Shown: positions 6,560-61,084 of the stretch, in pieces
Numbering within the stretch: position 1 is the first letter of the stretch
Layout: the number at the start of each line of letters is the position of its first letter
DNA from: Planctomycetales bacterium
GTDB lineage: Bacteria; Planctomycetota; Planctomycetia; Isosphaerales; Isosphaeraceae
Assembly (NCBI GenBank): GCA_027449865.1
Contig: DAIDKV010000004.1
Location: 8,253 to 72,252 of the forward strand
Length of the DNA stretch: 64,000 nucleotides
Direction: 5' to 3'
Position numbers and translations under genes: made by a program
Notes under the pieces: model-generated
The model's input: only the letters and a program-made list of their open reading frames with translations
What the model was told of the DNA's origin: nothing
Database searches by the model: none

Positions 6560-8671
6560 TCAGGTCGCCTCGGAGACCAGCACGATCATCGCGTGCGACT
6601 CGACCGGGTAAATCTGGCCGACCTCGATGCGAGGGCCGGTGTCGGGCTCGAGGATATCCCTGGGGGATGGCTGGGCGGTATCGACGGCGAGCCGCCAGAT
6701 CCGGCCGGTCGGGGCGGCGGGAATCCGGAATTCCAACGGCCTGCGCCAGGCGTTGAAGGCGACGTAGAGATCGCGATCGACCACGCCCGGCCGATCGCCG
6801 CCTCGACCGTCGAGGGCCAGGGCGATCGCGTGACTCTCACGGCCGAAGTCGGGCTGGGACGGCACGACACCGTGCCAGAGGATCTCGGGTGGGCGGCCCG
6901 TTCGATCCCCGTGGAAGAACGACCGACGCCGAAGAATCGGGTGTGCCTTCCGGATCGCGATCATCATCCGGGTGAACCGGTGGAAACCGGCCTCACGATC
7001 CAGGAGTCCCCAGTCGATCCAGCTCACCGGGTTATCCTGGCACCAGGCGTTGTTGTTTCCGCCCTGGGTTCGAAGAAATTCGTCGCCGGCGAGAATCATG
7101 GGAACGCCCTGGCTGAGCAGAAGGGTCGCCATCAGGTTGCGAGCCTGCCGGGCGCGAAGGCCGTTGATGGTCGGGTCGTTGGTCGGGCCCTCGACGCCGC
7201 AGTTCCAGCTATTGTTGTCGTTGCCGCCGTCGTGATTCCCCTCGCCGTTCGCCTCGTTGTGCTTTTCGTTGTAGGAGACGAGGTCGGCCAGGGTGAAGCC
7301 GTCGTGGCAGGAAATGAAGTTGATCGAGTGCAGCGGGCCGCGACCGGCGTAGAGGTCGTCGCTCCCGCAAAGCCGGGTCGCCAGCGCCGAGGTCATCCCC
7401 GGATCGCCACGCCAGAAGCGCCGGACGTCGTCGCGGAACCGGCCGTTCCAGTCCGACCACCGGCTCTCGCCGGGGAACGTGCCGACCTGATATAGCCCCG
7501 CGGCGTCCCAGGGCTCGGCGATCAACTTGGTGTCGCGGAGCAGGGAATCCTCGGAAATTCGACGGATCACCGGCGGCTCGACCAGAACATTGCCCCGGGC
7601 GTCACGCCCGAGGACCGAGGCCAGATCGAACCGAAAACCATCGACGCCCGCCTCGGCCACCCAGCTTCGAAGGCAATCGAGCAGGTAGTTCCGCACGATC
7701 GGGTGATCGCTGCTAAACGTGTTGCCGCAGCCGCTATAGTTTAGATAATTCCCGTGGTCGTCGAGCATGTAATAGAGCGTGTTGTCGACCCCTCGAAAGT
7801 TATAGGTCGGCCCGTCGTCGCCTCCCTCGGCGGTGTGGTTGAAGACGACGTCGAGATAGATTTCCAGCCCCTCGGCGTGGAACTGCTCCACAACCTCGAC
7901 CAGTTCGTGCAGCGGAGCGGCCCGCTCGGGGTTGGAGGAATACCCCGCCTTCGGAGCGCCGAAGGCGATCGGGTTATATCCCCAGTAGTTGCGTAGCCGC
8001 TCTCCGGTGAAAGGGTTGACGAATCGGCAATCGTCCTCGTCGAACTCGTCGATCGGAAGAAGCTCGACCGCGGTGACGCCCAGCTCCTTCAGATAGTCGA
8101 TCTTCTCGGCGAGTCCGCGGAAGGTGCCGGGATGCCGGACGTCGGCCTGGATGGTGAAGCCTCGAACGTGAAGCTCGTAGATGATCGTATCTTCCAGGGG
8201 CGTCCGCGGGTTGACGCGTCGCTCGCCCTCGATCAACGATTCGACCATCAGGCTCCTGCGCGGGAGGCCGTTGCCGGTTCCCCAGGGACGGCCGCACGAA
8301 AGGGCCCGGGTGTAAGGATCATGGAGGACCACCGAGGGATCGTATCGGTGGCCGTTGTCTCGGGGACCATCCACGCGAAACCCGTAGCAAAACTCCTCCG
8401 GGAGCCCGTCGACGCGAATGTGCCAGTGGTCCCCGGTCCGGTTGATGCTCGGATCCATCGGGATTTCGGCGTGAATCTCGGTGTTGCAGGGCTCGGAGAG
8501 GACCAGGGTGACGTCCGTCCCATGTCGGCAGAGGAGAACGAAGTTCACGCCGAGAGGCGTCTCGGTCGCGCCCGCGGGCAGGGGACTACCCCGGCTGACC
8601 AGCAACAGCCGGTCGCGGTAGGTGTATTCGGAGGCCGTCATCGACTCGATCCGTTCCGTCGCCCTGGTCAT
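6560..8671 (-). CDS. glgX: glycogen debranching enzyme GlgX (GH13 isoamylase-type)
   Basis: GH13 regions are present: 'VYLDVVFNHTAEG', 'GVDGFRFDLASVLGR', 'LIAEPWD', 'FISCHDGFTLADLVSYN'. The start is set at MTRATE (8671); the longest ORF start at 8893 would run into the divergent gene at 8863. Confidence 0.9.
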   Translation of the reverse strand: MTRATERIESMTASEYTYRDRLLLVSRGSPLPAGATETPLGVNFVLLCRHGTDVTLVLSEPCNTEIHAEIPMDPSINRTGDHWHIRVDGLPEEFCYGFRVDGPRDNGHRYDPSVVLHDPYTRALSCGRPWGTGNGLPRRSLMVESLIEGERRVNPRTPLEDTIIYELHVRGFTIQADVRHPGTFRGLAEKIDYLKELGVTAVELLPIDEFDEDDCRFVNPFTGERLRNYWGYNPIAFGAPKAGYSSNPERAAPLHELVEVVEQFHAEGLEIYLDVVFNHTAEGGDDGPTYNFRGVDNTLYYMLDDHGNYLNYSGCGNTFSSDHPIVRNYLLDCLRSWVAEAGVDGFRFDLASVLGRDARGNVLVEPPVIRRISEDSLLRDTKLIAEPWDAAGLYQVGTFPGESRWSDWNGRFRDDVRRFWRGDPGMTSALATRLCGSDDLYAGRGPLHSINFISCHDGFTLADLVSYNEKHNEANGEGNHDGGNDNNSWNCGVEGPTNDPTINGLRARQARNLMATLLLSQGVPMILAGDEFLRTQGGNNNAWCQDNPVSWIDWGLLDREAGFHRFTRMMIAIRKAHPILRRRSFFHGDRTGRPPEILWHGVVPSQPDFGRESHAIALALDGRGGDRPGVVDRDLYVAFNAWRRPLEFRIPAAPTGRIWRLAVDTAQPSPRDILEPDTGPRIEVGQIYPVESHAMIVLVSEAT

Positions 8672-8862
8672 CGGCTGAGCGCTCCCCGTCGTGGAGGACC
8701 CGGGCTCGTCTCGTCGCGTGCCCGGAGAGAGGTGTCCCGGATTCTCCGCCGATCGGCCATTGGAAACAATCACAATCCCGCGATATCCTGAATCAGCATG
8801 GAACGAACCCCGGCCTTGCCCGCCCTGGACCCAGACGACTCCAGCCACCAGGACCCCCCTCG

Positions 8863-11193
<2,331 letters not shown>

Positions 11194-47726: not shown

Positions 47727-49523
47727 TCACGACGGCGGCAGGACATATCCCAGCTTTCGGAGCCGGGCCCTGAGGGCTGACTCGTCCTCGGCCCGGAACA
47801 CGAGGCTCCGATCGCCGGCCCGCTGGCAAAGTTTGGCGAGCGGTCGGTCCGCGGCCAGGAGCTGGGCCGTCTCGGCATCAGCGCATTCGATCAGCCGGAC
47901 GGTCCCCAGGTCGCGGAGGCGACCAGACTGCTCCGAGAGGTCGGCCATCAAAACCTGCACCGGCTGGGGCAGGGGGCCCTGTCCGTTCTCGACCAGGAAC
48001 GCCTCCAGCTCGGCGGGAGCCATCCCGCGCTCGACCGCGGCGAGGATCTTCCCACGATCCAGTTTCCAGACCGAGTCAGACGTCCGCTCGGCCACGCGAT
48101 CGAGCATCAGCACGTCGGACGGGTCGGGAGGGCGTTGCAGGGCAACCACGTCCTGGTTCGGCAGGATGCGGAAGTGGGGTTCCGACGCCGAGGGCTCGGG
48201 ATGATATTCCTCGGCGAGGTCCAGGCACCAGGCGCCGAGGGGATTGAGCCGGAGGAATTTGAGGCCGTCGTAGCGGCTCAGGCAGCTCAGATCGTCCGCG
48301 CCCCATCGCGAGGAGAAATCGTCGCGGGCGTCGTGCGGCGGGATGTAGGCCACATCGATCAGGCCGAGCGTGGCGGCCGGCTCGAAGAGCATCGCCAGGA
48401 TGAACCGGCCCTGAAGCTGCTCCCAGGTATGCGGATCGTCGTAGCCGAGCGAGCCATACTGCGAATCGGAGATGTACAGATCCCAGTCATCGCGGCAGAC
48501 CTCGAACCGAAGCCCCATCGCCCGGATGTACCGGAAAAAATCGTCGACGCCGACCCATCGGCCAGGCGGACACCCGCGGAGCGCCTCGACAACCTTCTTC
48601 CGTCGCCCCGAGACCGCGGTAAGGCCGGCCTTACGCTGGCCCTTGATCGCGTCGACCCGGTGAAACTCGTCGAAGTCGGTCGTCGTGAGCCACCTCCGCC
48701 AGGCGATGCGCAGCACGACATGGGGCGGCTGGTTCAGGGCCTTGCGCCCGGCCTCGGTCAATTCGAGGATGTTCCGGGACGTCGCGGCGAGCCCCGCCGC
48801 CTGCACCAGCGCCGGCCAGGCGGCGGCCCGGATGGTCAAATCGTTCACGGGTTCGTCGCGATACTCGCGGGACACGGACGGATCGAAGAAATCCCCGTTG
48901 GTCAGCACGGAGCGAACCGCGTCGATCGTCTCTCCGATCGGCCGACGGGTCTTGTCACTGACCCGGACCCGGCCCGCCTCGATCAACCGGAGGACCGCAC
49001 GAAGCTCGCGTTCCGCGACCGGAGCCGTCGCGCGGATGCGGAGCGGAACTTCCTCTTCCTCGTGCGAGGACTCCGGCCCGAGGTCGATCGTCTCGGGTAG
49101 TTCGTCGATCGTGGCGATCGTAAAGGCCGGAGGCGGGGGGACGAAGGATTTGAGGATCGCTTGCACGTCGGTCGGGAGCTGCCAGTCTCTCGGCAGGAAG
49201 AGGGCCAGGGCCGTCGGGGTTTTTCTCACGCCGAACGATGGGGAACGGCCGTAGCTGGCCCGGAACCGCTCCAGGTCCAGCAGACCGGCCGGGGCGTGCG
49301 TCGCCTCCTGCACGGCCGACCGGTTCGTCTCGTCGAGCGCCTCATAGAGCCGTCGGACGTTCGCCTCGCGCGACATCGTGTCGGCCAGAAATGGGACGAG
49401 ATCTGTCTTGCGCGTCGGCGGATCGGCCGAGACGAGCCTGGAGAGAGGCCGGAGTTCATCGAGGGTCAGACGCTCGTAACTCGCAAGGGTTCCTAGCCGG
49501 GGAACGATCATGCTTCGAACCAT
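47727..49523 (-). CDS. large hypothetical protein (598 aa, soluble)
   Basis: Long ORF with balanced composition; the opposite-frame ORFs are Arg/Pro-rich. It weakly reminds me of helicase-associated (XPB-neighbour type) proteins, but no catalytic motif is seen. Confidence 0.65.
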   Translation of the reverse strand: MVRSMIVPRLGTLASYERLTLDELRPLSRLVSADPPTRKTDLVPFLADTMSREANVRRLYEALDETNRSAVQEATHAPAGLLDLERFRASYGRSPSFGVRKTPTALALFLPRDWQLPTDVQAILKSFVPPPPAFTIATIDELPETIDLGPESSHEEEEVPLRIRATAPVAERELRAVLRLIEAGRVRVSDKTRRPIGETIDAVRSVLTNGDFFDPSVSREYRDEPVNDLTIRAAAWPALVQAAGLAATSRNILELTEAGRKALNQPPHVVLRIAWRRWLTTTDFDEFHRVDAIKGQRKAGLTAVSGRRKKVVEALRGCPPGRWVGVDDFFRYIRAMGLRFEVCRDDWDLYISDSQYGSLGYDDPHTWEQLQGRFILAMLFEPAATLGLIDVAYIPPHDARDDFSSRWGADDLSCLSRYDGLKFLRLNPLGAWCLDLAEEYHPEPSASEPHFRILPNQDVVALQRPPDPSDVLMLDRVAERTSDSVWKLDRGKILAAVERGMAPAELEAFLVENGQGPLPQPVQVLMADLSEQSGRLRDLGTVRLIECADAETAQLLAADRPLAKLCQRAGDRSLVFRAEDESALRARLRKLGYVLPPS

Positions 49524-49881
49524 CTCATCCGCTACCGTGATCTCGACGACTTCCCCTCCCGCAGCTCCCTCCCCATGTTACGAGATCGTGCGCGCCGGCG
49601 ACATCGGGTGTCGGACTCGCGGGCGCTCGGAAAAATGGAGACTCCTCGCTCACCACCATTCCGAGCGACGGCCGGCGTCCCCGCGGACTGGCTTGGCCCT
49701 CGGGCCGCGCACACCAACCCGAAGCGCCCGCGAGGGGCCTCCCACGCTGGGCCCGCCTCGGTCTCCGGAACCCTCGCTAGCGCTTCGGGTTAGTGGGCCT
49801 CGCTCCGCTCTTCCAGTTGGTGGTGAGCGAGGAGTCTTGAAAAATACCCCCGCGCCTCGGCGGAGGCGCTGGGGGCGTCGA

Positions 49882-50985
49882 TCACAGCAGGTTAACGATC
49901 CGATCAGCGAGCCCCTTCTCGCCGAGGACAACGCTGAGCTTGCCGTTACCGGCAACCTTCTCCAGGACCTCCAGCTCCCGGAGCCGCATCAAAACCGGGT
50001 TCTCGGCGAGCAGCTTCGCCGTGTTCGCCTGGCTCCGAAGCGCCGCGGTCTCCTCACGACGAGTGACCAGGTTGGCCTCGGCGGCCTTGCGAGCCTCGGT
50101 TACGCGGTTCATCAGCTCCTTCATGTCGCCCGGCAGAATGATGTCGCGGACGCCCGCCGAGAGCACCTCCATCCCGAGCGCAAGCGACCGAGGGCCAAGT
50201 AGCTCCTCGACCTCGCGTGCCACGACCTCCTTGTCGGCGAGCAGGGCATCCAGCTCGCGAGCCCCGACCACGGCCCGGAGCGCAAGCTGAGCCTCTCGGT
50301 AGAGGGCCTGTCGGGCGTCGTCAGCCGCGTCGAGGGCGCGTCGAGGATCGACGATCCGGTAGTTGACGATCGCATTGAGCCGGAGCGTCACCTTGTCGGC
50401 CGTCATCACGTCCTGGCCGCTGACATCCAGCGACGCCTCCCGCAGATCCACCTCCACGACCTTCGCCTCGGCCTCGCCCCTCCAGAAAGCGTAAATCCCA
50501 GGCGCGAGCGTCTCGGTATACCGGCCGTCGAGGAACAACACACCCGCGCAGCCGCGGTTGACCGTGCAGATGTCGAGCATCGCCGAGACCGACGACCGCG
50601 CGATGGCGCGCAGGTCCTCGTGCTCGAACCGCGACCGACGAGCGTCGACGACCTCGACGCGAACGTCCCTCGGCTCGGTCCAGTAAGCGTACAGCCCCGG
50701 GGGCAAGATCGCGGCGAACCGGCCGTCGATCCAGACCAGCCCCCGCTGATCATCCTTCAAATCGACCACCAGCGCGAGCCCCTTCAGCGCCCCCGAGGCG
50801 ACGATCAAATCGAGCTTCTCGTGAGCGAGCCGAGGCGCCCGTCGCGAGACGACCTCCACCGAGACCTGCCCGAGCGGGTCAAGGAACCAGTGCGTCCCCT
50901 CGCCGAGCAGGCCGACGAACTCGCCATCGCGGAAGTGGAGGCCGACCTCGTAGCTCTGGATCCGGTAGTTTTTCATCGGGTACAT
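49882..50985 (-). CDS. SPFH/band-7 (slipin-like) protein with a triplicated N-terminal module
   Basis: C-terminal half 'TADKVTLRLNAIVNYRIVDP...GMEVLSAGVRDIILP...EA+KAAEANL' is the SPFH core plus coiled coil. The start is set at MYPMKNY, with GGAGG 8 nt upstream; the track ORF extends to 51297. Confidence 0.8.
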   Translation of the reverse strand: MYPMKNYRIQSYEVGLHFRDGEFVGLLGEGTHWFLDPLGQVSVEVVSRRAPRLAHEKLDLIVASGALKGLALVVDLKDDQRGLVWIDGRFAAILPPGLYAYWTEPRDVRVEVVDARRSRFEHEDLRAIARSSVSAMLDICTVNRGCAGVLFLDGRYTETLAPGIYAFWRGEAEAKVVEVDLREASLDVSGQDVMTADKVTLRLNAIVNYRIVDPRRALDAADDARQALYREAQLALRAVVGARELDALLADKEVVAREVEELLGPRSLALGMEVLSAGVRDIILPGDMKELMNRVTEARKAAEANLVTRREETAALRSQANTAKLLAENPVLMRLRELEVLEKVAGNGKLSVVLGEKGLADRIVNLL

Positions 50986-51345
50986 CGATCGCCCTCCTCG
51001 CCCCGGGCCTCGACCGCGGGGCCTTTTCTCAACGCTTCGTGATCGCTCAGAGTGAAGGGCCGTCGGGAGCCGGCGCGTCCGCCGGTCACAGTCGGTTATG
51101 CGGGGTGGCGCCCCGATCGAAACGGCCGCCGGTCCCGTGCCGCCCCGGCAGGACAGGCCCATAGGAGACGGGCTCCGACCTGCGTCGACGGCGGTGATCC
51201 GACGGCGCGCGACGTCGGGAATCGCGCACCACAGGGCCAACCTTCCTGCTGCCGACGTCCGACCCCGGAAACCCAGGGCCGATCGTCGGCCGACCAAGCG
51301 GACGTCCGACCCCCTCGGGCCGGCTGTTGGAGACCTTTTCAGGGT

Positions 51346-51418
51346 CTAGGTGGACGGGAGTCGAACCCGCGACACCCGGGTTTGGAGCCCGGTGCTCTAT
51401 CCGCTGAGCTACCAAAGA
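51346..51418 (-). tRNA. tRNA-Trp(CCA)-like gene with a non-pairing acceptor stem (possible pseudo-tRNA)
   Basis: On the minus strand: D-arm GCTC-AGCGGATA-GAGC, anticodon stem CCGGG/CCCGG with loop CTCCAAA, T-arm GCGGG-TTCGACT-CCCGT. The acceptor strands are TCTTTGG / CCACCTA, so pairs 2:71, 3:70 and 4:69 are pyrimidine-pyrimidine mismatches. Confidence 0.6.
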
Positions 51419-51563: not shown

Positions 51564-51943
51564 ATTCACCACAGAGCCACAGCGCGGCCGAGCCGCCTCC
51601 CATCAGAATGAATTCACCACAGAGCCACAGAGAGCACAGAGAAAAATCTTCGTAGAATACATTGCGTGAAAAAGTGGCTCTGTTATTTATAGTGATGAGA
51701 TTGTACTCGGCGTACAAGATTCTCAAGTTTAGTAGTGCAGAGATTTAATTTTGCTGGGATTTCTCTGTGTCTCTGTGGTTAACTCTTGTCCGACGCCTTT
51801 CCTCAGGTCGTCACAGATGTTCGATCTTCCTGGGATTTCTCTGTGTCTCTGTGTCTCTGTGGTAAATTCTTGTCCGGCGCCTTTCCTCAGGTCCTCACAG
51901 ATGTTCGATCTTGCTGGGATTTCTCTGTGTCTCTGTGGTAAAT
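51564..51943. repeat. repeat family 2 (CACAGAG-rich): two left copies, an AT-rich core, then 2.4 tandem inverted copies of a 76-84-bp unit
   Basis: ATTCACCACAGAGCCACAG occurs at 51564 and 51612. Inverted units starting CTGGGATTTCTCTGTGTCTCTGTGGT lie at 51754-51829, 51830-51913 (with an extra CTGTGTCT) and 51914-51943 (partial). The AT-rich segment is 51651-51753. Confidence 0.8.
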
Positions 51944-52045
51944 CGTCCGGGATTTCTTCGCATTCGGCCCGCACGCCTGCTAGGATGACCGGGCCTGCGT
52001 GCGATGGCTCGTGAGACGATGCGGGGCAGGGGGGGGATGTTATCC

Positions 52046-54970
52046 ATGTCGGCGGCGGTCTGGAGTACCGATCAGGTCCTGGCGCTGGCGCCCGACGCCT
52101 CCTCGGCGAAGTCGGGGAAGGACCTCGGCACGCCGCGGAAGTGGGTCCGACTCGGCCAGGCCGAGGGCGTGATCTGGGGCGAATGTCAGGGGAGCGGATC
52201 GACTCCTTACAGGGTCCAGGTTGAGCTTTCCGAGCCGGCCTTTCACTGCTCGTGCCCGAGCCGAAAATTCCCCTGCAAGCACGGCCTGGGTCTCCTCCTG
52301 ATCTGGGCCGGACAATCCTCGGCGCTTTCCCAGGGAGACCCGCCGACGTGGGTCTCCGAGTGGCTCGAAGGCCGCGCCCAACGAGCCGAGAAGAAGGCCG
52401 CGAAAGATCAGGCGAAGCAGGAAAAAAGCGAGCGCGGCGAGCCGGCCATCGATCGGGTCGCGAAGCAGAAGCGGGAATCCGCGCGACGGATCAAGGTCGT
52501 TGACGGCCTTGACGAGCTGGCCCGATGGCTCTCCGACCTCGTCCGTCAGGGTCTTGCCGGCGTCTCCGACCGCCCGCCCAGCTTCTGGGACGACCGCGCC
52601 CGCCGCCTGATCGACGCCCAGGCTCCCGGCGTGGCTCGCCGGGTGAGACAGCTTGCCGACCTTCCGACCACCGGCGAGGGCTGGCAAGGCGCCCTGCTCG
52701 ATCGGCTTGCCCGTCTTCATCTGATGATCGAGGCGCATCGACGGATCGACTCCCTCCCGCCCGATGTCCAGGCCGATCTGCGCGCCGCCGTCGGCTACCC
52801 GATCGATCTGGACGAGGTCCGCGCTGGTCCCGGATTTCGCGACCACTGGCAGGTCGTCGGCCAGCGGACAGAGCGTGAGGAGATGCTGCGCGTTCGTCGG
52901 ACCTGGCTCGTCGGCCGCACCACCGGCCAGCCCGCGCTCCTGCTCGACTTCTCCCACGTGAGGCAGCCGATCGCCGAGGTCTCCATCCCGCCCGGGGCCG
53001 AGATCGATGCGGATTTGTCGTTCTTCTCGAGCGCCTTCCCGCTCCGGGCACTGGTGAAGGCCCGACACGGGGCACCATCGGCGATCGCCGAGATCGGCGG
53101 ATTCTCCCGGATCGCCGACGCCCTGGCCGCCCACGCCGGTGCGATCGCAAAGAACCCCTGGCTGGAAACCTTCCCGATCGTCCTCCTGGGCGTCGTCCCG
53201 GTGTTTCGCGACGAGCAATGGATCGTCCGCGATGCCGAGTGCCGCGCGCTGCCGATCTCTCCGAGGTTCGAGGGCGGATGGAGCCTGCTCGCGGCCTCCG
53301 GCGGTCGGCCAATCTCGATCGCCGGCGAATATGATGGCGCGTGTTTCTTACCGCTCTCGACCGTGATCGATGGCCGGTTCCGGGCGATCGTCGGACCCGA
53401 GGCCGAGGCGCGGGCGACCGCCTTGCCATCCCCCGAGGGACCGCCCGAGATCGCCCGGGCCTGGCAGCAGGCGTCGGCCGTGGCGATGGTCGGCGTCGCG
53501 CGGAAGCCGGCCGCGATCGAGTTGCCCGACGGACCGATCGGTCCCGCGTTGCAGAAGATCCAGGGACAGGAGCCGACGGCGGCCCTGCTGGGTTCCTCGG
53601 CCCTTTTGACACTTTACGCCCGCGCCGGGCAGAGACCACCCACGGACGACGGCCCGATCCCCGATCCAGCCCCCAGGGATCACCGCCCCGAATGCCGGCC
53701 CGAGGCCGCGAACCGACTCCGCTCGATGATCGGCGGGCCCTACGTCGCGATGATCGAGGAATGGCTCGACCTGCTGGCCGAATCGGGGTGCCGGCTGCCC
53801 GACGATTTGCTTGTCGACCTGATCGATCTCGGGCGCCGCGAATCCGTCTATCGTCCGATGCTCCAAAAAGTCGTCAGCGCACGGGGCCGATGGCTCTCGG
53901 CACAGAACCCGACCGCGTGGGGCTACCTCGGCGGCGAGGCCGGGCGGGACCCCGAAGAGGTCTGGCAGACCGGGGCGAAGAAGGAGCGGCTGGTCGCCCT
54001 CCGGGAACTCCGGGCGAGCGATCCCGCGAAGGCCCGCCATCTGATCGCCACAACCTGGTCGACCGAGCCCGCCGACGGCCGCGCCGCGATCGTCGAGGCG
54101 CTCGGCGAGGGGCTCCAGCCCGAAGACGAGCCGTTCCTGGAATCGGCGCTCGACGACCGGGCGAAGACGGTCCGGCGCGCCGCCGCCGAGCTGCTCCCGC
54201 GGCTGACCGGCTCCCGGCTCTCGGCGCGGATGGCCGAGCGGGCGCGGGCCTGCGTCCGGTGGAGCGACCAGGGCCTCATCGTCGACCCGCCGAAGGCGTC
54301 CGACGCCGCGATGGTCCGCGACGGCGTCGAGCCGAAGCCGCCGGTCGGCACGGGCGAGCGGGCCTGGTGGCTCCGCCAGATCATCGCCGCGGCGCCGCTG
54401 TCGACATGGGCGACTACTGACCTCCCGACCCCCGATCGCCTGATCGCATCCCTTCGTTCGAACCCGTGGGGACAGGACCTCTGGATTTCCTTGTCCCGCC
54501 CCGTCGTCCGCGAGCGAGACGGAGACTGGGCTGAGGCCCTCCTGCGGAACCTGCCCGGGGAGGAATATGGACTCCCCGGCCTCATCCGGGGGCTTCTCCA
54601 ATCCATGGGCCCCGACCGTCGCGACGCGATGATCCTCGAATCCCTCCGCGTCGAGGACCGCGTCTTCCGGCCCGGCAGCCCGACCTTCCACCTGCTGTAC
54701 ATGATCCAGGCACCGATCGGCGAGGAGCTGGCCCGCGAGGTGCTTCGACACATCCGCGAGGAGATCGCGGCCGACGGCGGGGAGTCGAAGTACGACCGGT
54801 TCTTCTGGGCTTACCTCAACGCGCTGGGGAGTCGGGTCCCGCCCCATCTGGCGAGCGAGGTCGAGGGTGTCTCGCCCTCCGGCGATCTCGGCCACCTCGT
54901 CCAGTACTTCCATCAGTTCGTCAGCACGCTTCAGCAACGCCGCGAGATGCACCAGGAGCTCGCCCGATGA
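52046..54970 (+). CDS. SWIM zinc-finger protein fused to a long helical-repeat region (YehQ/DUF5691-like)
   Basis: 'VLALAPDASSAKSGKDL', 'WGECQGSGSTPYRVQV', SWIM 'FHCSCPSRKFPCKHGLGLL' (CxC..CxH), followed by about 850 aa of Leu/Ala/Arg-rich helical sequence. The ATG at 52046 is preceded by a G-run RBS; the longest ORF starts at 52004. Confidence 0.8.
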   Translation: MSAAVWSTDQVLALAPDASSAKSGKDLGTPRKWVRLGQAEGVIWGECQGSGSTPYRVQVELSEPAFHCSCPSRKFPCKHGLGLLLIWAGQSSALSQGDPPTWVSEWLEGRAQRAEKKAAKDQAKQEKSERGEPAIDRVAKQKRESARRIKVVDGLDELARWLSDLVRQGLAGVSDRPPSFWDDRARRLIDAQAPGVARRVRQLADLPTTGEGWQGALLDRLARLHLMIEAHRRIDSLPPDVQADLRAAVGYPIDLDEVRAGPGFRDHWQVVGQRTEREEMLRVRRTWLVGRTTGQPALLLDFSHVRQPIAEVSIPPGAEIDADLSFFSSAFPLRALVKARHGAPSAIAEIGGFSRIADALAAHAGAIAKNPWLETFPIVLLGVVPVFRDEQWIVRDAECRALPISPRFEGGWSLLAASGGRPISIAGEYDGACFLPLSTVIDGRFRAIVGPEAEARATALPSPEGPPEIARAWQQASAVAMVGVARKPAAIELPDGPIGPALQKIQGQEPTAALLGSSALLTLYARAGQRPPTDDGPIPDPAPRDHRPECRPEAANRLRSMIGGPYVAMIEEWLDLLAESGCRLPDDLLVDLIDLGRRESVYRPMLQKVVSARGRWLSAQNPTAWGYLGGEAGRDPEEVWQTGAKKERLVALRELRASDPAKARHLIATTWSTEPADGRAAIVEALGEGLQPEDEPFLESALDDRAKTVRRAAAELLPRLTGSRLSARMAERARACVRWSDQGLIVDPPKASDAAMVRDGVEPKPPVGTGERAWWLRQIIAAAPLSTWATTDLPTPDRLIASLRSNPWGQDLWISLSRPVVRERDGDWAEALLRNLPGEEYGLPGLIRGLLQSMGPDRRDAMILESLRVEDRVFRPGSPTFHLLYMIQAPIGEELAREVLRHIREEIAADGGESKYDRFFWAYLNALGSRVPPHLASEVEGVSPSGDLGHLVQYFHQFVSTLQQRREMHQELAR

Positions 54971-56124
54971 GCAAGGCCGTCGGCAAGACAAAGTCGCCTC
55001 CCGCCAAATCGACGGCCGCCGTCCAGGCCGCCTCCGAGGACGCCGCCGTCACCGTCCTCCGTCGACACGCCGAGGAGCAGTTCGCCGAGGAACTCTCGGC
55101 GTTCCGGAAGGCCGACGACCGCCCGCGACCGCCCCAATGGCAGCTCTCACCGTGGGCCGTCTCGACCTACCTCCTCGGCGGCAAGCTGCCGGACGGGTTC
55201 GTCGTCTCGCCCAAGTACATCGGCAACCGACGATTGATCGAGATCGCCGTCTCGACGCTCGCGACCGACCGCGCCCTGCTCCTGCTCGGGGTGCCGGGAA
55301 CGGCCAAGAGCTGGGTCTCGGAGCACCTGGCCGCGGCGATCTCGGGCGACTCGACCCGGCTGGTGCAGGGGACCGCCGGCACCAGCGAGGAGGCCATCCG
55401 ATACGGATGGAACTACGCCCTCCTGCTGGCGAAGGGCCCGTCGATGGAGGCGCTCGTCCCGAGCCCGCTCATGCGGGCGATGAAGGACGGTCAAATCGCC
55501 CGGATCGAGGAATTGACCCGCATCCCGGCCGACGTCCAGGACACGCTCATCACGATTCTCTCCGAGAAGACCCTCCCGATCCCCGAGCTGAACGCCCAGC
55601 TCCAGGCAACGAAGGGCTTCAACGTGATCGCCACCGCGAACAACCGCGACAAGGGCGTCAACGACCTGTCGAGCGCGCTGAAGCGGCGGTTCAACACGGT
55701 CGTCCTGCCGCCGCCGTCCACCGCCGAGGAGGAAGTGGATATCGTCCGAATTCGGGTCGAGGCCCTGGGGCGTGCGCTGGAGTTGCCGGCCGAGCCGCCG
55801 GGGCTGGAGGAGATCCGTCGGGTCGTCACCGTCTTCCGCGAACTGCGCGACGGCCAGACCGCCGACGGCAAGACGAAGGTCAAGCAGCCGAGCGGGACCA
55901 TGAGCACCGGCGAGGCGATCTCGGTCGTGAACCAGGGGCTTGCCCTGGCGGCGCATTTTGGCGACGGCGTTTTGCGTGCTGGGGACGTCGCCTCGGGACT
56001 CGTCGGCGCCGTCGTGAAGGACCCGGTGCAGGATCGGGTCGTCTGGCTCGAATACCTCGAAGCCGTGGTGAAGGAACGCGACGGCTGGAAGGACCTCTAC
56101 CGCGCCTGTCGCGAGGTGAGCTGA
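54967..56124 (+). CDS. MoxR-type AAA+ ATPase (AAA_5, YehL-like)
   Basis: Walker A 'GVPGTAKS', Walker B-like 'IARIEELTR', sensor-1 'VIATANN', 'LSSALKRRF'. ATGA overlap with the SWIM gene. Confidence 0.88.
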   Translation: MSKAVGKTKSPPAKSTAAVQAASEDAAVTVLRRHAEEQFAEELSAFRKADDRPRPPQWQLSPWAVSTYLLGGKLPDGFVVSPKYIGNRRLIEIAVSTLATDRALLLLGVPGTAKSWVSEHLAAAISGDSTRLVQGTAGTSEEAIRYGWNYALLLAKGPSMEALVPSPLMRAMKDGQIARIEELTRIPADVQDTLITILSEKTLPIPELNAQLQATKGFNVIATANNRDKGVNDLSSALKRRFNTVVLPPPSTAEEEVDIVRIRVEALGRALELPAEPPGLEEIRRVVTVFRELRDGQTADGKTKVKQPSGTMSTGEAISVVNQGLALAAHFGDGVLRAGDVASGLVGAVVKDPVQDRVVWLEYLEAVVKERDGWKDLYRACREVS

Positions 56125-56154
56125 AACGGGAACGCTGCTCGCCCGGGTGGTCTC

Positions 56155-56227
56155 TTGCAGGAGCCGGCTCCAGCCGGCGATCTTCGAAAGATCGAGAGCC
56201 GATCGAACTCGCCTCGAAGATCGCCGG
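56155..56227. repeat. family-1 palindromic element copy in the moxR-downstream spacer
   Basis: TTGCAGGAGCCGGCTCCAGCCGGCGATCTTCG is the reverse complement of the 33.1-33.4 kb core with one substitution. CCGGCGATCTTCGA (56174-56187) and TCGAAGATCGCCGG (56214-56227) form a perfect 14-bp inverted repeat. Confidence 0.7.
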
Positions 56228-56253
56228 AAAATCCCGGAGGACTCGTCGTGGAC

Positions 56254-56910
56254 ATGGCCCCCAGCTTCTCGACCTCGGGACTCGCGCCGATCGGAATCCT
56301 CCTGATTGTGCTGCTGGCCCTGTTCGTGGCGGCCGTGGTCCTGGGGGCCCGCAGCCTGCTCCTGCTCGTCGTCCGACGGCCCGGCGACCGGAGGCGCGGG
56401 CTCCGTCTCGCGCTCATGGCCACCGGGCTAAGCGTCCTGGCCGAGGCGTGGAGCTTCCTGCTCCACCATATTCCCTACTCCCCGCATCCGGGCTTCTCGA
56501 ATTATCTGCTCGTCGTCCCGCTCCAGATCAGCCTCTGCGCGGTGATCTTCTGGGGGCTGGCCGGGAGCCGGCGAATCTCCGCCACGGGCCGGCTGGTGCT
56601 CGCGGTCCTGGCGATTGGTTTCCCGATGGGTGCCGTCCGAGGAATCCATCGGTGGGAGCGCAAGCAGTGGTTGCTGGCGGGGGCCGAGACCTGGGCGAAG
56701 CACGTGAGCGAGGGAGAGGCGAGTGCCGCCGGCTGGGCGGAGCGGGCGCGCGACGAAACGGGGGACTCCGCCCAGGTCTCGCGCGAGTTCGCGAATCGGG
56801 ATCGACTCTGGGCGCGATACAGTGCCGAGATGGCCCGGGCGTTCCGATGGGCCGCGGATCATCCGGAGGAGCCGTTGCCGGATGTCCCCGAGCCCGACTG
56901 GCGGCGATGA
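56254..56910 (+). CDS. 4-TM membrane protein, paralogue A (no family recognised)
   Basis: 218 aa with GGAGGA 12 nt upstream. TM segments 'IGILLIVLLALFVAAVVLG', 'LRLALMATGLSVLAEAWSFLL', 'LLVVPLQISLCAVIFWGLAG', 'LVLAVLAIGFPMGAV'. C-terminal soluble tail ends 'FRWAADHPEEPLP'. Confidence 0.7.
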   Translation: MAPSFSTSGLAPIGILLIVLLALFVAAVVLGARSLLLLVVRRPGDRRRGLRLALMATGLSVLAEAWSFLLHHIPYSPHPGFSNYLLVVPLQISLCAVIFWGLAGSRRISATGRLVLAVLAIGFPMGAVRGIHRWERKQWLLAGAETWAKHVSEGEASAAGWAERARDETGDSAQVSREFANRDRLWARYSAEMARAFRWAADHPEEPLPDVPEPDWRR

Positions 56911-56967
56911 ACGGAGAGTCTTGAGAACTCCGGCAAAATTGGGCCGCGGAATCCAGGAGGTCCCATC

Positions 56968-57576
56968 ATGATGGGCGTGCCCGACTTCGAGCTGCTGTTG
57001 GCAGGCCTCTTCATCGTGCTCTTGCAGTTAGTCTTTCTCACCGTCGCAATGCTCCTGGGATGCTGGAGCTTGTTCCTGCTCCTCCGCCGCTCCGCCGCCC
57101 CAAGGCGCGGGTTTCGGCTGGCCCTCATCGCCGTCATCCTCAGCGCCGTGGTTGAGACGTGGATCTACCTGTTCTTCACCCCGTGGCGATTCCTCAACGT
57201 CCGGCCCCTGCTGTTTTTGCCGCTCCCCTCACTTCAGGTCGGGCTCTGCGGGGTCGTCTTCTGGGGACTGGCCGGGAGCCAGCGGATCTCGGGCACGGGC
57301 CGGATGGCGATCGCGGTCCTGGCCATCGGTCTCGCGATGGGGGCCGTAATGGCGATTCGACGCCAGGATCAAAGGCGGGAGATGCTGTACTGGGCCGAAG
57401 CCAACGCGAAGGAGGCGCGCAGCTTCGAGGAGGCTTCGCGGGATTCGCATGGCATGGCGGATTACTTCCTCTGCCACGCGCGCAACCGCAAGGCCCTGTC
57501 GGAGGCCTACCGATGGGCCGCAGACCATCCCGGAGAGCCCGTGCCACGTGTCTCCTCGCCCGACTGCGGGTTCTGA
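56968..57576 (+). CDS. 4-TM membrane protein, paralogue B
   Basis: 202 aa, collinear with paralogue A ('RRGFRLALIAVILSAVVETW', 'LQVGLCGVVFWGLAGSQRISGTGRMAIAVLAIGLAMGAV', 'YRWAADHPGEPVP'). GGAGG RBS. Confidence 0.7.
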   Translation: MMGVPDFELLLAGLFIVLLQLVFLTVAMLLGCWSLFLLLRRSAAPRRGFRLALIAVILSAVVETWIYLFFTPWRFLNVRPLLFLPLPSLQVGLCGVVFWGLAGSQRISGTGRMAIAVLAIGLAMGAVMAIRRQDQRREMLYWAEANAKEARSFEEASRDSHGMADYFLCHARNRKALSEAYRWAADHPGEPVPRVSSPDCGF

Positions 57577-57586
57577 GCCGAAAACC

Positions 57587-59890
57587 ATGAAAACGGCAAA
57601 TCCCACCTCGATCCACGTCCTCGGCGTCCGTCATCACGGGCCGGGCTCGGCACGCAGCGTTGCCGCTGCGCTCGAAGCCATCGCGCCCGAGGTCGTCCTC
57701 ATCGAGGGCCCTCCCGATGCCAACGACCTCATCGCGCTCGCCGGGCTCAACGGGATGGAACCACCCGTCGCCCTCCTGATCTATCGACCCGAGGAGCCGA
57801 AGCAGGCCGTCTATTACCCGTTCGCCCTCTTCTCGCCCGAGTGGCAGGCGATCCAGTTCGCACTCGCGAAAAAGCTCGCGGTCCGGTTCATGGATCTCCC
57901 GATGAAACATCAACTCGGGATCGCATCTGACGAGGATGAGCCTGCGGAGGTGAAGCCGAATCCCGAGCCCGGCGCGAACGGTGAGGACGAACCGATCTCG
58001 CCGAAGCTCGCGAGACAGCTTCGGATCGACCCCTTGCAGGTGCTCGCCGAGGCGGCCGGCTTCGGCGAGGGCGAACGGTGGTGGGAGCACGTCGTCGAGC
58101 ACCGCCGCGACGGCGCCGACCTCTTCGCCGCGATCCTCGAAGCGATGGCCGAGGTGCGCGCCTCGGTCCCGCCGGTCGAGGACCGCCGAGAACTCCGCCG
58201 CGAGGCCCACATGAGGCGGACGATCCGCGCCGCCCGCGCCGAGGGCTTCCGCCGGATCGCCGTTGTCTGCGGCGCCTGGCACGCGCCGGCGCTCGCCGAG
58301 GACCGATGGCCGCCCGCCTCCAAGGACGACGCCCTCCTCAAAGAAATGCCAACGGCGAAGGTTGCCGCGACCTGGGTTCCCTGGACCCACGGCCGGCTCG
58401 GCTCCGAGAGTGGCTACGGCGCCGGGGTCGAGTCGCCGGGCTGGTATCACCACCTCTGGACCTGCTCCGGACAGGTCGCCGAACGCTGGATGACCCGCGT
58501 GGCCCGCCTGCTTCGTGACGAGGGGCTCGATGCCTCACCCGCCTCGGCGATCGAGGCCGTTCGCCTGGCCGAGGCGCTCGCCGCGCTCCGCGATCGCCAC
58601 CTGCCCGGCCTGGAAGAGCTGACCGAGGCCGCACGCGCCATCTTTTGCTTCGGCGACGACATTCCCATGCGGCTGATCCGTCGGAAGCTGATCGTCGGCG
58701 AAGCGCTGGGGCGCGTTCCCGAGGAGACGCCGACGGTCCCGCTGGTCCGCGACCTCGAACGGCTCCAGAAGTCGCTCCGCCTCAAGCCCGACCCCGAGCC
58801 AAGGCCCCTCGAACTGGATCTACGCAACGAGACCGATTTGCAGCGGAGCCGGTTGCTGCATCGGCTCGGGATGATCGGCGTGCCCTGGGGCTCCATCGAA
58901 CGCACAACCGGCCGCGGAACGTTCAAGGAAGCGTGGAAGCTCCAGTGGCGGCCCGAGCTGGCCGTGGCGCTGATCGAGGCCAGCCTCTGGGGGTCAACGG
59001 TGCTCGACGCCGCGACCGCCCGCGCCGACGACCTCGCCGCGAGGGCGCCCGATCTGCCCGCGCTGACGTCCCTCCTCGATCGTGCCATGCTCGCGGATCT
59101 CCCGGCCTCGGTCGAGCGGATCATGGCCCGTCTGGAGGAACGCGCCGCACTCTCCAGCGACGCGGTCCAGCTTCTCAACGCGCTACCGCCGCTGGCAAGC
59201 CTGCTCCGGTACGGCAACGTCCGCAAGACCGACGCCGAGGCCGTCGCCCACGCGACCAACGGGATCGTCGCGCGGGCCTGCATCGGGCTCCCAGGCGCCT
59301 GCGCCTCGCTCGACGACGAGGCCGCCGCCGCGATGTTCGAGGCGATTCACAGCGCCAACGACGCCATCGTCCTGATCGAAAATCCCGAACACCTGAAGAT
59401 GTGGCAGGCCACGCTCGCGAAGCTGACAGGCTCCGACCGACTGCACGGGCTGGTCGCGGGGCGATGCGTCCGGCTCCTGCTCGACGGAGGCACATTCGAC
59501 GCCGAGGAGACGGCCCGGCGGATGAACCTCGCCGTCTCGAAGGCCGCCGACCCTCCTCGCGCCGCCGCCTGGATCGACGGCTTCCTCCGAGGGAGCGGCG
59601 AACTTCTCTATCACGACGACGGTCTCTTCGCGATCCTCGACGGCTGGCTCGCCTCGGTCCCGGCCGACGCCTTCACCGAACTCCTGCCGATGCTCCGTCG
59701 GACGTTCTCAACCTTCGAGGCCCCGCTGCGCAGGAACCTCGGCGAGAAGGCGCGGCGGGGCGTGAAGGCGGGCGCTGCGTCGCCCGCCCGAAAGCCAGCC
59801 GCGCCCGTCGACTTCGACGAGGATCGGGCCGCGACAGTCCTCCCGCTGCTCTCGGCGATGCTCGGCCTCGACACCCCGGAGGCTTCCTGA
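57587..59890 (+). CDS. DUF5682/YehM-like large protein
   Basis: 767 aa. N-terminal 'IHVLGVRHHGPGSARSV...VLIEGPPD', then 'YYPFALFSPEWQAI' and 'VVCGAWHAPAL'. Size and position next to the vWA gene match the YehM-type component. Confidence 0.78.
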   Translation: MKTANPTSIHVLGVRHHGPGSARSVAAALEAIAPEVVLIEGPPDANDLIALAGLNGMEPPVALLIYRPEEPKQAVYYPFALFSPEWQAIQFALAKKLAVRFMDLPMKHQLGIASDEDEPAEVKPNPEPGANGEDEPISPKLARQLRIDPLQVLAEAAGFGEGERWWEHVVEHRRDGADLFAAILEAMAEVRASVPPVEDRRELRREAHMRRTIRAARAEGFRRIAVVCGAWHAPALAEDRWPPASKDDALLKEMPTAKVAATWVPWTHGRLGSESGYGAGVESPGWYHHLWTCSGQVAERWMTRVARLLRDEGLDASPASAIEAVRLAEALAALRDRHLPGLEELTEAARAIFCFGDDIPMRLIRRKLIVGEALGRVPEETPTVPLVRDLERLQKSLRLKPDPEPRPLELDLRNETDLQRSRLLHRLGMIGVPWGSIERTTGRGTFKEAWKLQWRPELAVALIEASLWGSTVLDAATARADDLAARAPDLPALTSLLDRAMLADLPASVERIMARLEERAALSSDAVQLLNALPPLASLLRYGNVRKTDAEAVAHATNGIVARACIGLPGACASLDDEAAAAMFEAIHSANDAIVLIENPEHLKMWQATLAKLTGSDRLHGLVAGRCVRLLLDGGTFDAEETARRMNLAVSKAADPPRAAAWIDGFLRGSGELLYHDDGLFAILDGWLASVPADAFTELLPMLRRTFSTFEAPLRRNLGEKARRGVKAGAASPARKPAAPVDFDEDRAATVLPLLSAMLGLDTPEAS

Positions 59891-61084
59891 ATGGCTCCCC
59901 GCACCGACGACGAACGGCTCCGACGATGGCGGCTCGTCCTGGGCGGCGATGCCGACGGCACCGGCGCGGGGCTTCAGGGAGACGACGCCAACATCGACGC
60001 CGCGCTGGCGCAGCTCTATAACCCCGGCGGCGGAGGAGGAGGCGGCGGCGGCAAGGGACGTCGGGGCGGGCTCGGCGGCTCGGCGCCCAACGTGGCGCGA
60101 TGGCTCGGCGACATCCGGAAGTATTTCCCGCGCCCGGTCGTCCAGCTTCTTCAGAAAGACGCCATCGAGCGGCTCGACCTCCGCGCCATGCTCGCCCAGC
60201 CCGAACTGCTCGAGGCCGTCGAGCCCGACATCCACCTCGTCGCCAATCTCCTCTCGCTCAGGCAGGCCCTCCCTGGCGAAAGCCTGGAGACGGCCCGACT
60301 GGTCGTCCGAAAAGTGGTCGAGGAGCTGGAACGCAAACTGGCGAGCCCGATGCGGCAGGCCGTGATGGGGAGCCTCAACCGGGCGGTCCGCAACCGACGC
60401 CCACGCCACAACGAGATCGACTGGAACCGGACCATCCGCGCCAACCTCCGACACTTCCAGCCCGACTACCAGACGATCATCCCCGAGGTCCGGATCGGCT
60501 ACGGCCGAAAGCGTCAGGCGTTACGCGAGATCGTCCTCTGCGTGGATCAGAGCGGATCGATGGCAAGCTCCGTCGTCTACGCCGGAATCTTCGGCGCCGT
60601 GCTGGCGAGCCTGCCGGCGGTGAAGACGAGCATCGTCGTCTTCGATACGGCGGTCGTCGACCTGACGGCCGAGTTGCACGATCCGGTCGAGCTACTCTTT
60701 GGCACTCAGCTCGGCGGCGGGACCGACATCCACCGCGCCCTCACCTACTGCCAGGGACTCATCCGACAGCCGGGCGAGACCATTCTCGTGCTGATCAGCG
60801 ACCTGTTCGAGGGGGGCGATCGCGAGGGGATGTTTCGCGTGCTGGGATCGCTGGCATCCTCAGGCGTACAGGTGATTGGTTTGCTGGCGCTCAATGATGA
60901 AGGCGCGCCGTGTTATGATCACGAGCACGCCCGACGGATGGCGGCCCTTCAAATGCCGGTCTTCGCCTGCACGCCGGATCTCTTCCCCGACCTGATGGCC
61001 GCCGCGATTTCTCGGCAGGATCTCAGGCAATGGGCCGCCGCGCACGATGTGGTCGCCGCTCGCGGAATTGAGGCCGGACCCTGA
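59891..61084 (+). CDS. vWA domain protein (CoxE/YehP-like, MIDAS-containing)
   Basis: 'RWRLVLGG' N-terminus, Gly-run linker, MIDAS 'LCVDQSGSM', 'GGGTDI', 'ILVLISDLFEGG'. Its ATG abuts the upstream TGA. Confidence 0.88.
   Translation: MAPRTDDERLRRWRLVLGGDADGTGAGLQGDDANIDAALAQLYNPGGGGGGGGGKGRRGGLGGSAPNVARWLGDIRKYFPRPVVQLLQKDAIERLDLRAMLAQPELLEAVEPDIHLVANLLSLRQALPGESLETARLVVRKVVEELERKLASPMRQAVMGSLNRAVRNRRPRHNEIDWNRTIRANLRHFQPDYQTIIPEVRIGYGRKRQALREIVLCVDQSGSMASSVVYAGIFGAVLASLPAVKTSIVVFDTAVVDLTAELHDPVELLFGTQLGGGTDIHRALTYCQGLIRQPGETILVLISDLFEGGDREGMFRVLGSLASSGVQVIGLLALNDEGAPCYDHEHARRMAALQMPVFACTPDLFPDLMAAAISRQDLRQWAAAHDVVAARGIEAGP

Follow-up and report, generated by a model that had tools for sequence, protein, structure and literature searches.

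Do two membrane-protein genes that stand inside a MoxR–von Willebrand factor A (vWA) operon belong to the machine encoded by that operon, or did they arrive there as a passenger? The question was raised by a stretch of 64,000 nucleotides (nt) from a Planctomycetales bacterium of the Isosphaeraceae (GCA_027449865.1, contig DAIDKV010000004.1), which is the whole of the DNA analysed and is called the window below. In this window, two genes, orfA and orfB, occupied the 1462-bp stretch 56125-57586 that separates the gene for a MoxR-type AAA+ ATPase from that for a DUF5682 protein. A preliminary description made from the sequence alone had proposed a role for the pair in tethering or gating the AAA+/vWA machine at the cytoplasmic membrane. 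The comparative data spoke against this proposal. The pair was absent from 13 related operons, and MoxR, vWA, DUF5682 and DUF5691 genes were absent from all nine homologue contexts with identifiable neighbour genes; orfA and orfB were therefore rejected as a core component of the module. We consider it likely, with a probability of roughly 0.6, that the pair is a lineage-specific passenger in the operon and not a conserved or necessary MoxR/vWA subunit. The operon was composed as follows, with protein lengths in amino acids (aa).

52004..54970, + strand: SWIM zinc-finger/DUF5691 protein, operon gene 1, 988 aa (Pfam DUF5691 E 3.8e-129; SWIM 22.2 bits, cut-off 19.6)
54967..56124, + strand: MoxR-type AAA+ ATPase, operon gene 2, 385 aa (Pfam AAA_5 E 4.9e-38)
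56125..56253, + strand: spacer before orfA, 129 nt, with a perfect 14-bp inverted repeat and GGAGG at 56236-56240
56254..56910, + strand: orfA, predicted four-helix membrane protein, 218 aa (paralogy to orfB; hydrophobic segments)
56911..56967, + strand: orfA–orfB spacer, 57 nt, with GGAGG at 56956-56960
56968..57576, + strand: orfB, predicted four-helix membrane protein, 202 aa (paralogy; AlphaFold2 model)
57587..59890, + strand: DUF5682 protein, operon gene 3 of the canonical module, 767 aa (Pfam DUF5682 E 3.8e-278)
59891..61084, + strand: CoxE-like vWA protein, operon gene 4, 397 aa (Pfam VWA_CoxE E 5.4e-53)

All four module families were thus recovered by the Pfam scan on one strand and in canonical order, with the pair between the MoxR and DUF5682 genes, where the preliminary description had placed it. 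The MoxR start overlapped the DUF5691 stop by 4 nt, as judged from the coordinates of the open reading frames (ORFs), and the vWA gene began at the base directly after the DUF5682 stop (0-nt junction), while 10 nt lay between the orfB stop and the DUF5682 start. A scan that was not tuned to planctomycetes detected no terminator-like or promoter-like site on the + strand across 52004-61084. Since the genes share one orientation and no terminator-like site was detected, orfA and orfB are probably transcribed together with the operon.

Related operons were collected with the DUF5682 protein as the query and one genome per species, which yielded 12 loci from Isosphaeraceae, Singulisphaera, Tepidisphaeraceae, Gemmataceae, Obscuribacterales, a cyanobacterium and Paenarthrobacter. 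The module proteins of the window were 32-89% identical to those of the 12 loci, and the gene order of the module was repeated in L001-L010 and L012. The window therefore shared the same four genes, order and orientation with the DUF5691/SWIM–MoxR–DUF5682–VWA_CoxE operons, and differed from them in the two membrane-protein genes between MoxR and DUF5682, which were found in the window only. Neither tblastn nor hmmsearch with the hidden Markov model of the family detected a homologue of orfA or orfB in any of the 12 loci. The distance between MoxR and DUF5682 was within about 130 bp in 10 of them, and the cyanobacterial operon (L003) had a 328-bp gap without a family homologue. The closest relative of the window operon, L009 (MoxR 89% and DUF5682 78% identical), had a gap of 1.75 kb that held a transposase at exactly this junction (8365-9750, − strand; 461-aa DDE_5/DDE_Tnp_1 protein, E 5e-28). 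A thirteenth relative, on a 4049-bp contig from JGI sample 3300047160, had a MoxR–DUF5682 gap of 3 nt. In this relative both DUF genes were split (DUF5691 into 195 + 392 aa, DUF5682 into 49 + 305 aa), which suggests that frameshifts have arisen, either through pseudogenisation or through an assembly error. The preliminary description had taken the canonical module to have no membrane subunit, and this was borne out, both by the lack of such genes in the 13 related operons and by the four core proteins of the window, none of which contained a hydrophobic segment of transmembrane (TM) grade.

The junction that received the pair differed from the others in the operon. Relatives kept roughly 65-100 nt between MoxR and DUF5682, whereas the other junctions of the window measured −4 nt and 0 nt. 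Because these overlap or abut, we infer that extra DNA can enter without breaking translational coupling at the MoxR–DUF5682 spacer alone, which fits the insertion sequence (IS) of L009 and the insertion in L003. The latter was 1.4 kb long, lay between the DUF5682 and vWA genes (8016-9442), and encoded a NADAR-domain fragment (95 aa) and a DUF6881 protein (111 aa). Neither a target-site duplication nor a terminal inverted repeat was found flanking the orfA/orfB insert, and comparison with L001, L002 and L009 gave no definition of its left boundary. On the right side, roughly 12 nt before the DUF5682 ATG (GAGCCG..ACCATG) resembled L009 and L002 by eye, and the insert would therefore end at about the orfB stop codon.

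Homologues of the pair were sought with an exhaustive HMMER search, using an orfA+orfB profile against 1.84 billion representative proteins (E ≤ 1e-3). Outside the window, 15 matches were obtained, of which 14 were family-sized (100-232 aa, E 3e-45 to 1e-5), while the fifteenth was a marginal match within a 1280-aa protein; orfA, itself a member of the profile, scored 422 bits (E 3.7e-122). The exhaustive search was needed to find the family, since word-index searches returned only orfA itself with orfA as the query and only six proteins with a 13-sequence profile, the latter search adding P0018. The family as defined here comprises P0001-P0016 and P0018, with an alignment of 13 members. The nine homologues with identifiable neighbour genes (P0003-P0010 and P0016) were all present as single copies. 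Their surroundings were heterogeneous (PSCyt/DUF1501, kdsA, asd, RuBisCO, CRCB, HNH nucleases, ParE, HicAB and Uma2), with ParE/antitoxin, HNH, T5orf172 and Asd in L015, HNH in L018, Uma2 in L020, HicA/HicB in L022, RuBisCO in L024, and kdsA and CRCB in L014. A metagenome scan with a seven-sequence alignment yielded one locus, L021, which was apparently the P0005 gene again (scores identical to L015, and a contig of the same length, 56,141 bp). Phage, plasmid and viral-contig collections contained no homologue. The preliminary description had named homologues that are widespread and unlinked to MoxR-vWA clusters as evidence against its proposal, and had asked whether the two always occur together. 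Linkage was absent seen from either side (0/9 contexts linked, 0/12 operon loci with a homologue), but the family was rare and not widespread, with 15 other matches among 1.84 billion proteins.

The age of the duplication also bears on how the pair came into the operon. The two ORFs were confirmed as collinear paralogues, with 43% identity over 202 columns (BLASTP, E 9e-39). A nucleotide block that looked roughly 80% identical had been taken as a sign of recent duplication or gene conversion. The identity of this block was reproduced (81.5%), although at an offset of 711 and not at the implied offset of 710, where it dropped to 30%; the conclusion drawn from it did not hold. By the method of Nei and Gojobori, the proportion of synonymous differences (pS) between orfA and orfB was 0.45 overall and 0.36 in the TM3-TM4 core, with ratios of nonsynonymous to synonymous divergence (dN/dS) of 0.64 and 0.40, respectively, and synonymous sites were close to saturated. 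Where the two proteins share an amino acid, the genes also shared the codon in 50 cases versus 40.3 expected from the codon usage of the operon (z 2.2), and in 17 versus 13.3 cases in the conserved core (z 1.5). On these counts, the 81.5% block is explained by amino-acid conservation together with the GC bias at third codon positions (GC3). In neighbour-joining trees, orfA and orfB were exclusive sisters in 0 of 200 bootstraps, while orfB grouped with P0018 in 130 of 200. P0018 was 60% identical to orfB and 47% to orfA, compared with 41% between orfA and orfB in the same comparison, and orfB shared 48% identity with P0003; orfA was thus the more divergent paralogue and orfB the one nearer the rest of the family. 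On the near-saturated synonymous sites, codon counts and tree topology together, a recent duplication or gene conversion was rejected. Because the divergence of orfA from orfB (43% identity) is far deeper than that of the window operon from L009, the duplication is probably older than the entry of the pair into this operon.

As a passenger insertion, the history of the pair would run as follows. A gene of an orphan membrane-protein family, probably of planctomycetes, would have duplicated first, and the pair would probably have arrived as an already duplicated unit. On the branch that led to this genome, it would have landed in the one gap of appreciable size that the operon leaves between non-overlapping genes, and its expression would have been captured through the probable transcription with the operon genes. 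Tandem paralogues often assemble with each other, and the two proteins would probably likewise form a hetero-oligomer in the cytoplasmic membrane.

Several points weigh against this history. The IS in L009 sits exactly at the junction in question, so that the pair may formerly have been present there and then lost. The scan covered representative genomes only (12 loci), and the genome of the window itself was covered for 64 kb only. The closest homologue, P0018, lay on a 1081-bp contig from JGI sample 3300047160 on which the neighbours were not readable, and was followed, with a 4-nt overlap, by a gene fragment of 40 aa. If this fragment belonged to DUF5682, a second lineage would share the linkage; a search with the DUF5682 N-terminus, in which only 16 candidates were scored, matched neither a 40-aa protein nor a 1081-bp contig, but yielded the thirteenth relative described above. 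P0018 and the thirteenth related operon came from the same sample, on separate contigs. Finally, the pair is co-oriented and intact and orfB lies very close to DUF5682, although this is expected for an integrated gene and a passenger alike.

The same arrangement is what keeps a second explanation alive, namely that after insertion the SWIM/DUF5691–MoxR–DUF5682–vWA machine of this lineage recruited the pair, be it as an adaptor or anchor at the membrane or as a client. The remodelling activity of the machine would then act at, or on, the cytoplasmic membrane in this organism. Co-orientation and the 10-nt gap between orfB and DUF5682 leave room for such a lineage-specific functional link, as do the single strand without a detectable terminator or promoter between the genes and the preservation of both copies under some purifying selection (dN/dS 0.40-0.64). 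There is also precedent, in that MoxR-vWA systems such as RavA-ViaA handle membrane complexes, and about 28% of iSTAND-type systems carry N-terminal TM segments as a membrane anchor (PMC7159879). We nevertheless regard recruitment as unlikely, given that the pair occurred in none of the 13 related operons, that none of the nine readable homologue contexts held MoxR, vWA or DUF5682, and that unrelated DNA was accepted at the same junction (the IS of L009) and at another (NADAR/DUF6881 in L003). Loop charges pointed weakly in the same direction. The N-terminus averaged +0.15/-1.2, and loops 1 and 3 held 5.2 K/R versus 1.6 for the N-terminus plus loop 2, which favours an N-out/C-out topology. The C-terminal hairpin would then face the periplasm and be out of reach of the ATPase in the cytoplasm. 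Since the 15 residues that follow TM4 are likewise basic (+3.8/-2.5 on average), this topology argument is a weak one. The more specific form of the idea, that the machine of this lineage acquired a dedicated heterodimeric membrane component from a free-standing orphan four-TM family, is more doubtful still. If it were true, a cytoplasmic AAA+/vWA remodelling system would have become membrane-coupled, and the pair would be the first clue to the role of DUF5682-type operons, as their client, anchor or location.

Comparison with known systems places the operon itself more closely. Judged by its Pfam matches, it combines a MoxR/CoxE-like vWA pair with partners of the DUF5682 and DUF5691 families; a literature search found no paper mentioning DUF5682, DUF5691, PF18934 or PF18944. 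Pairs of the CoxD/CoxE and RavA/ViaA type likewise combine an AAA+ MoxR ATPase with a CoxE-like vWA protein, but are without DUF5682/DUF5691 partners and without a dedicated four-TM protein of the orfA/orfB family. They remodel or mature client complexes, some of which are membrane-bound (PMC7159879). The MoxR–vWA ternary conflict systems, of the VMAP, iSTAND, FtsH and beta-propeller types (Kaur et al. 2020, PMC7159879), resemble the window in having a MoxR–vWA core with lineage-variable extra components. They differ in that their TM segments are fused to a component, whereas the window has separate membrane-protein genes, and in their third components, which in the window are DUF5682 and DUF5691. 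In addition, the bpMoxR model gave the window MoxR 23.7 bits, under its 27-bit threshold. On this comparison, which covered the bpMoxR score, the neighbour families and PADLOC, the operon falls outside the four ternary systems.

These comparisons also bear on a third explanation, in which the family travels with the variable or defence-related accessory genome. Its members would then be, for instance, effectors that damage membranes or are of the abortive-infection type, or else immunity proteins, and a MoxR-vWA system with a conflict role of its own would have captured the pair as an effector cassette. Toxin–antitoxin or nuclease genes did lie within a few kb of the homologue in four contexts (L015, L018, L020 and L022), and conflict systems have on repeated occasions taken up MoxR-vWA pairs as their regulators (PMC7159879). 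The remaining evidence makes this explanation improbable. No PADLOC match with E ≤ 0.01 was obtained for MoxR, orfA, orfB, DUF5682 or vWA, and the sole PADLOC match was a weak HEAT-ARM hit on DUF5691 (E 0.0016, 13.9 bits). The sub-threshold bpMoxR score, the lack of any PHROG match and the lack of homologues in the phage, plasmid and viral-contig collections speak against it as well, and the other contexts were of a housekeeping kind (RuBisCO in L024, kdsA and CRCB in L014, Asd in L015). Toxin–antitoxin genes are moreover abundant throughout planctomycete genomes, which weakens the neighbourhood association.

A fourth possibility is that orfA and orfB are not genes, either because their frames stay open by chance in GC-rich DNA or because they are pseudogenes in decay, as the many long spurious ORFs in this 66% GC window and the word-index search returning orfA alone might suggest. 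This is very improbable in view of the 14 family-sized homologues, which lie on independent contigs and reach E values of 3e-45, motifs conserved across the family, a GC3 signature in the proposed frame, a confident AlphaFold2 model and properly spaced ribosome-binding sites. The features first reported for the two ORFs were all recovered. Each protein contained four hydrophobic segments (19-residue Kyte-Doolittle mean 1.5-3.2), in agreement with the AlphaFold2 model of orfB, and the four shared motifs quoted in the preliminary description were located in both. GGAGG-type ribosome-binding sites stood 13 nt before the ATG of orfA and 7 nt before that of orfB. GC contents at codon positions 1/2/3 were 0.71/0.53/0.85 for orfA and 0.65/0.47/0.85 for orfB and resembled those of the flanking genes. 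On these sequence criteria, together with the paralogy (E 9e-39) and the dN/dS of 0.40-0.64 between the two, orfA and orfB are effectively shown to be genuine genes.

The two genes shared a reading frame, with one TGA and 19 sense codons between them (56908-56967); read-through would yield a fusion with eight TM segments, and the shared frame is probably due to chance. The inverted repeat in the MoxR–orfA spacer (56174-56187 and 56214-56227; CCGGCGATCTTCGA and TCGAAGATCGCCGG) had a 26-nt loop and no T-run after it. Its 14-bp stem was kept in the centroid fold, but the z-score of the whole spacer was only -0.38, so that a significant RNA structure of the entire spacer was unsupported. With up to two mismatches, an arm of the repeat occurred 10 times in the window versus 2.9 times expected. 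The repeat at 56174-56227 could be an operator or an RNA stem.

The family to which the pair belongs had no recognised relative, as the preliminary description had stated. For orfA and orfB no match was found in Pfam-A, NCBIfam, PADLOC (E ≤ 0.01) or PHROG, and the 13 aligned members gave only isolated sub-threshold Pfam matches, whose families varied between members (best E 0.001-0.07). The AlphaFold2 model of orfB, built with a 13-row alignment, was confident (predicted local distance difference test, pLDDT, 89.9; predicted template modelling score, pTM, 0.76) and had helices at residues 7-39, 45-69, 79-100, 109-159 and 164-186. In this model, a long helix prolongs TM4 and leads into a hairpin of antiparallel helices. 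Foldseek comparison of the model, a check already proposed in the preliminary description, gave no structural match (PDB, best E 0.4 and TM-score never above 0.40; BFVD, best E 0.74), and the best E of a sequence-profile search of the PDB was 0.31. The small four-TM bacterial families DUF4190, DUF2165, MerC and CopD are similar in size and helix number, but a relationship was not demonstrated, as the Pfam matches were sub-threshold and Foldseek E values never below 0.4. According to these searches, the orfA/orfB family is a very small, previously uncatalogued family of integral membrane proteins, and it is probably restricted to Planctomycetota.

Conservation within the family was concentrated in a few features. 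Besides the four TM helices, these were a TM2 glutamate shared by 11 of the 13 aligned sequences, a loop with the sequence P-W-R-F-P, a run of basic character (R-W-D/E-R-R-R) directly behind TM4, and a C-terminus of two helices with the motif R-W-A-A-D-H-P (RWAADHP) at its end. Eight of the 13 aligned members (P0003, P0004, P0005, P0008, P0009, P0010, P0012 and P0016) additionally carried a C-x2-H-x7-C-x2-C motif, probably a zinc knuckle, in the loop between the two C-terminal helices (columns about 196-211 of alignment A3). The motif was absent from orfA, orfB, P0018, P0006, P0007 and P0011, and it has been lost in the orfA/orfB/P0018 clade and in the latter three. The conserved intramembrane glutamate and the soluble hairpin would form the functional core of the family.

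Upstream of the operon, the sole sigma-70-like site of the region was located at 51666-51693. A tandem repeat lay just upstream of the DUF5691 start at 52004 (51762-51937; 84-nt unit, 2.1 copies, 94% matches) and contained TCTCTGTG octamer runs. Further upstream, and outside the operon, the − strand encoded a 471-aa SPFH/Band7 protein and a 598-aa protein with a Helicase_C_3 domain (47727-51297). Between the SPFH/Band7 gene and the operon, an Rfam tRNA match was obtained on the − strand at 51351-51414 (49.8 bits; model positions 5-66 of 71), for which ARAGORN made no call. This site looks like a truncated or aberrant tRNA, and it could be the remnant of an integration site.

Position in an operon alone was no evidence of membership in the machine that the operon encodes, and for orfA and orfB the comparative data argue against it. 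What the locus offers is an uncatalogued membrane-protein family of great rarity, for which a fold was predicted with confidence and no structural neighbour was found; it is a candidate for a new DUF entry. The MoxR–DUF5682 spacer in turn is a point at which insertions are tolerated, although the rest of the operon is tightly coupled, which helps in annotating the widespread, unstudied DUF5682/DUF5691 clusters.

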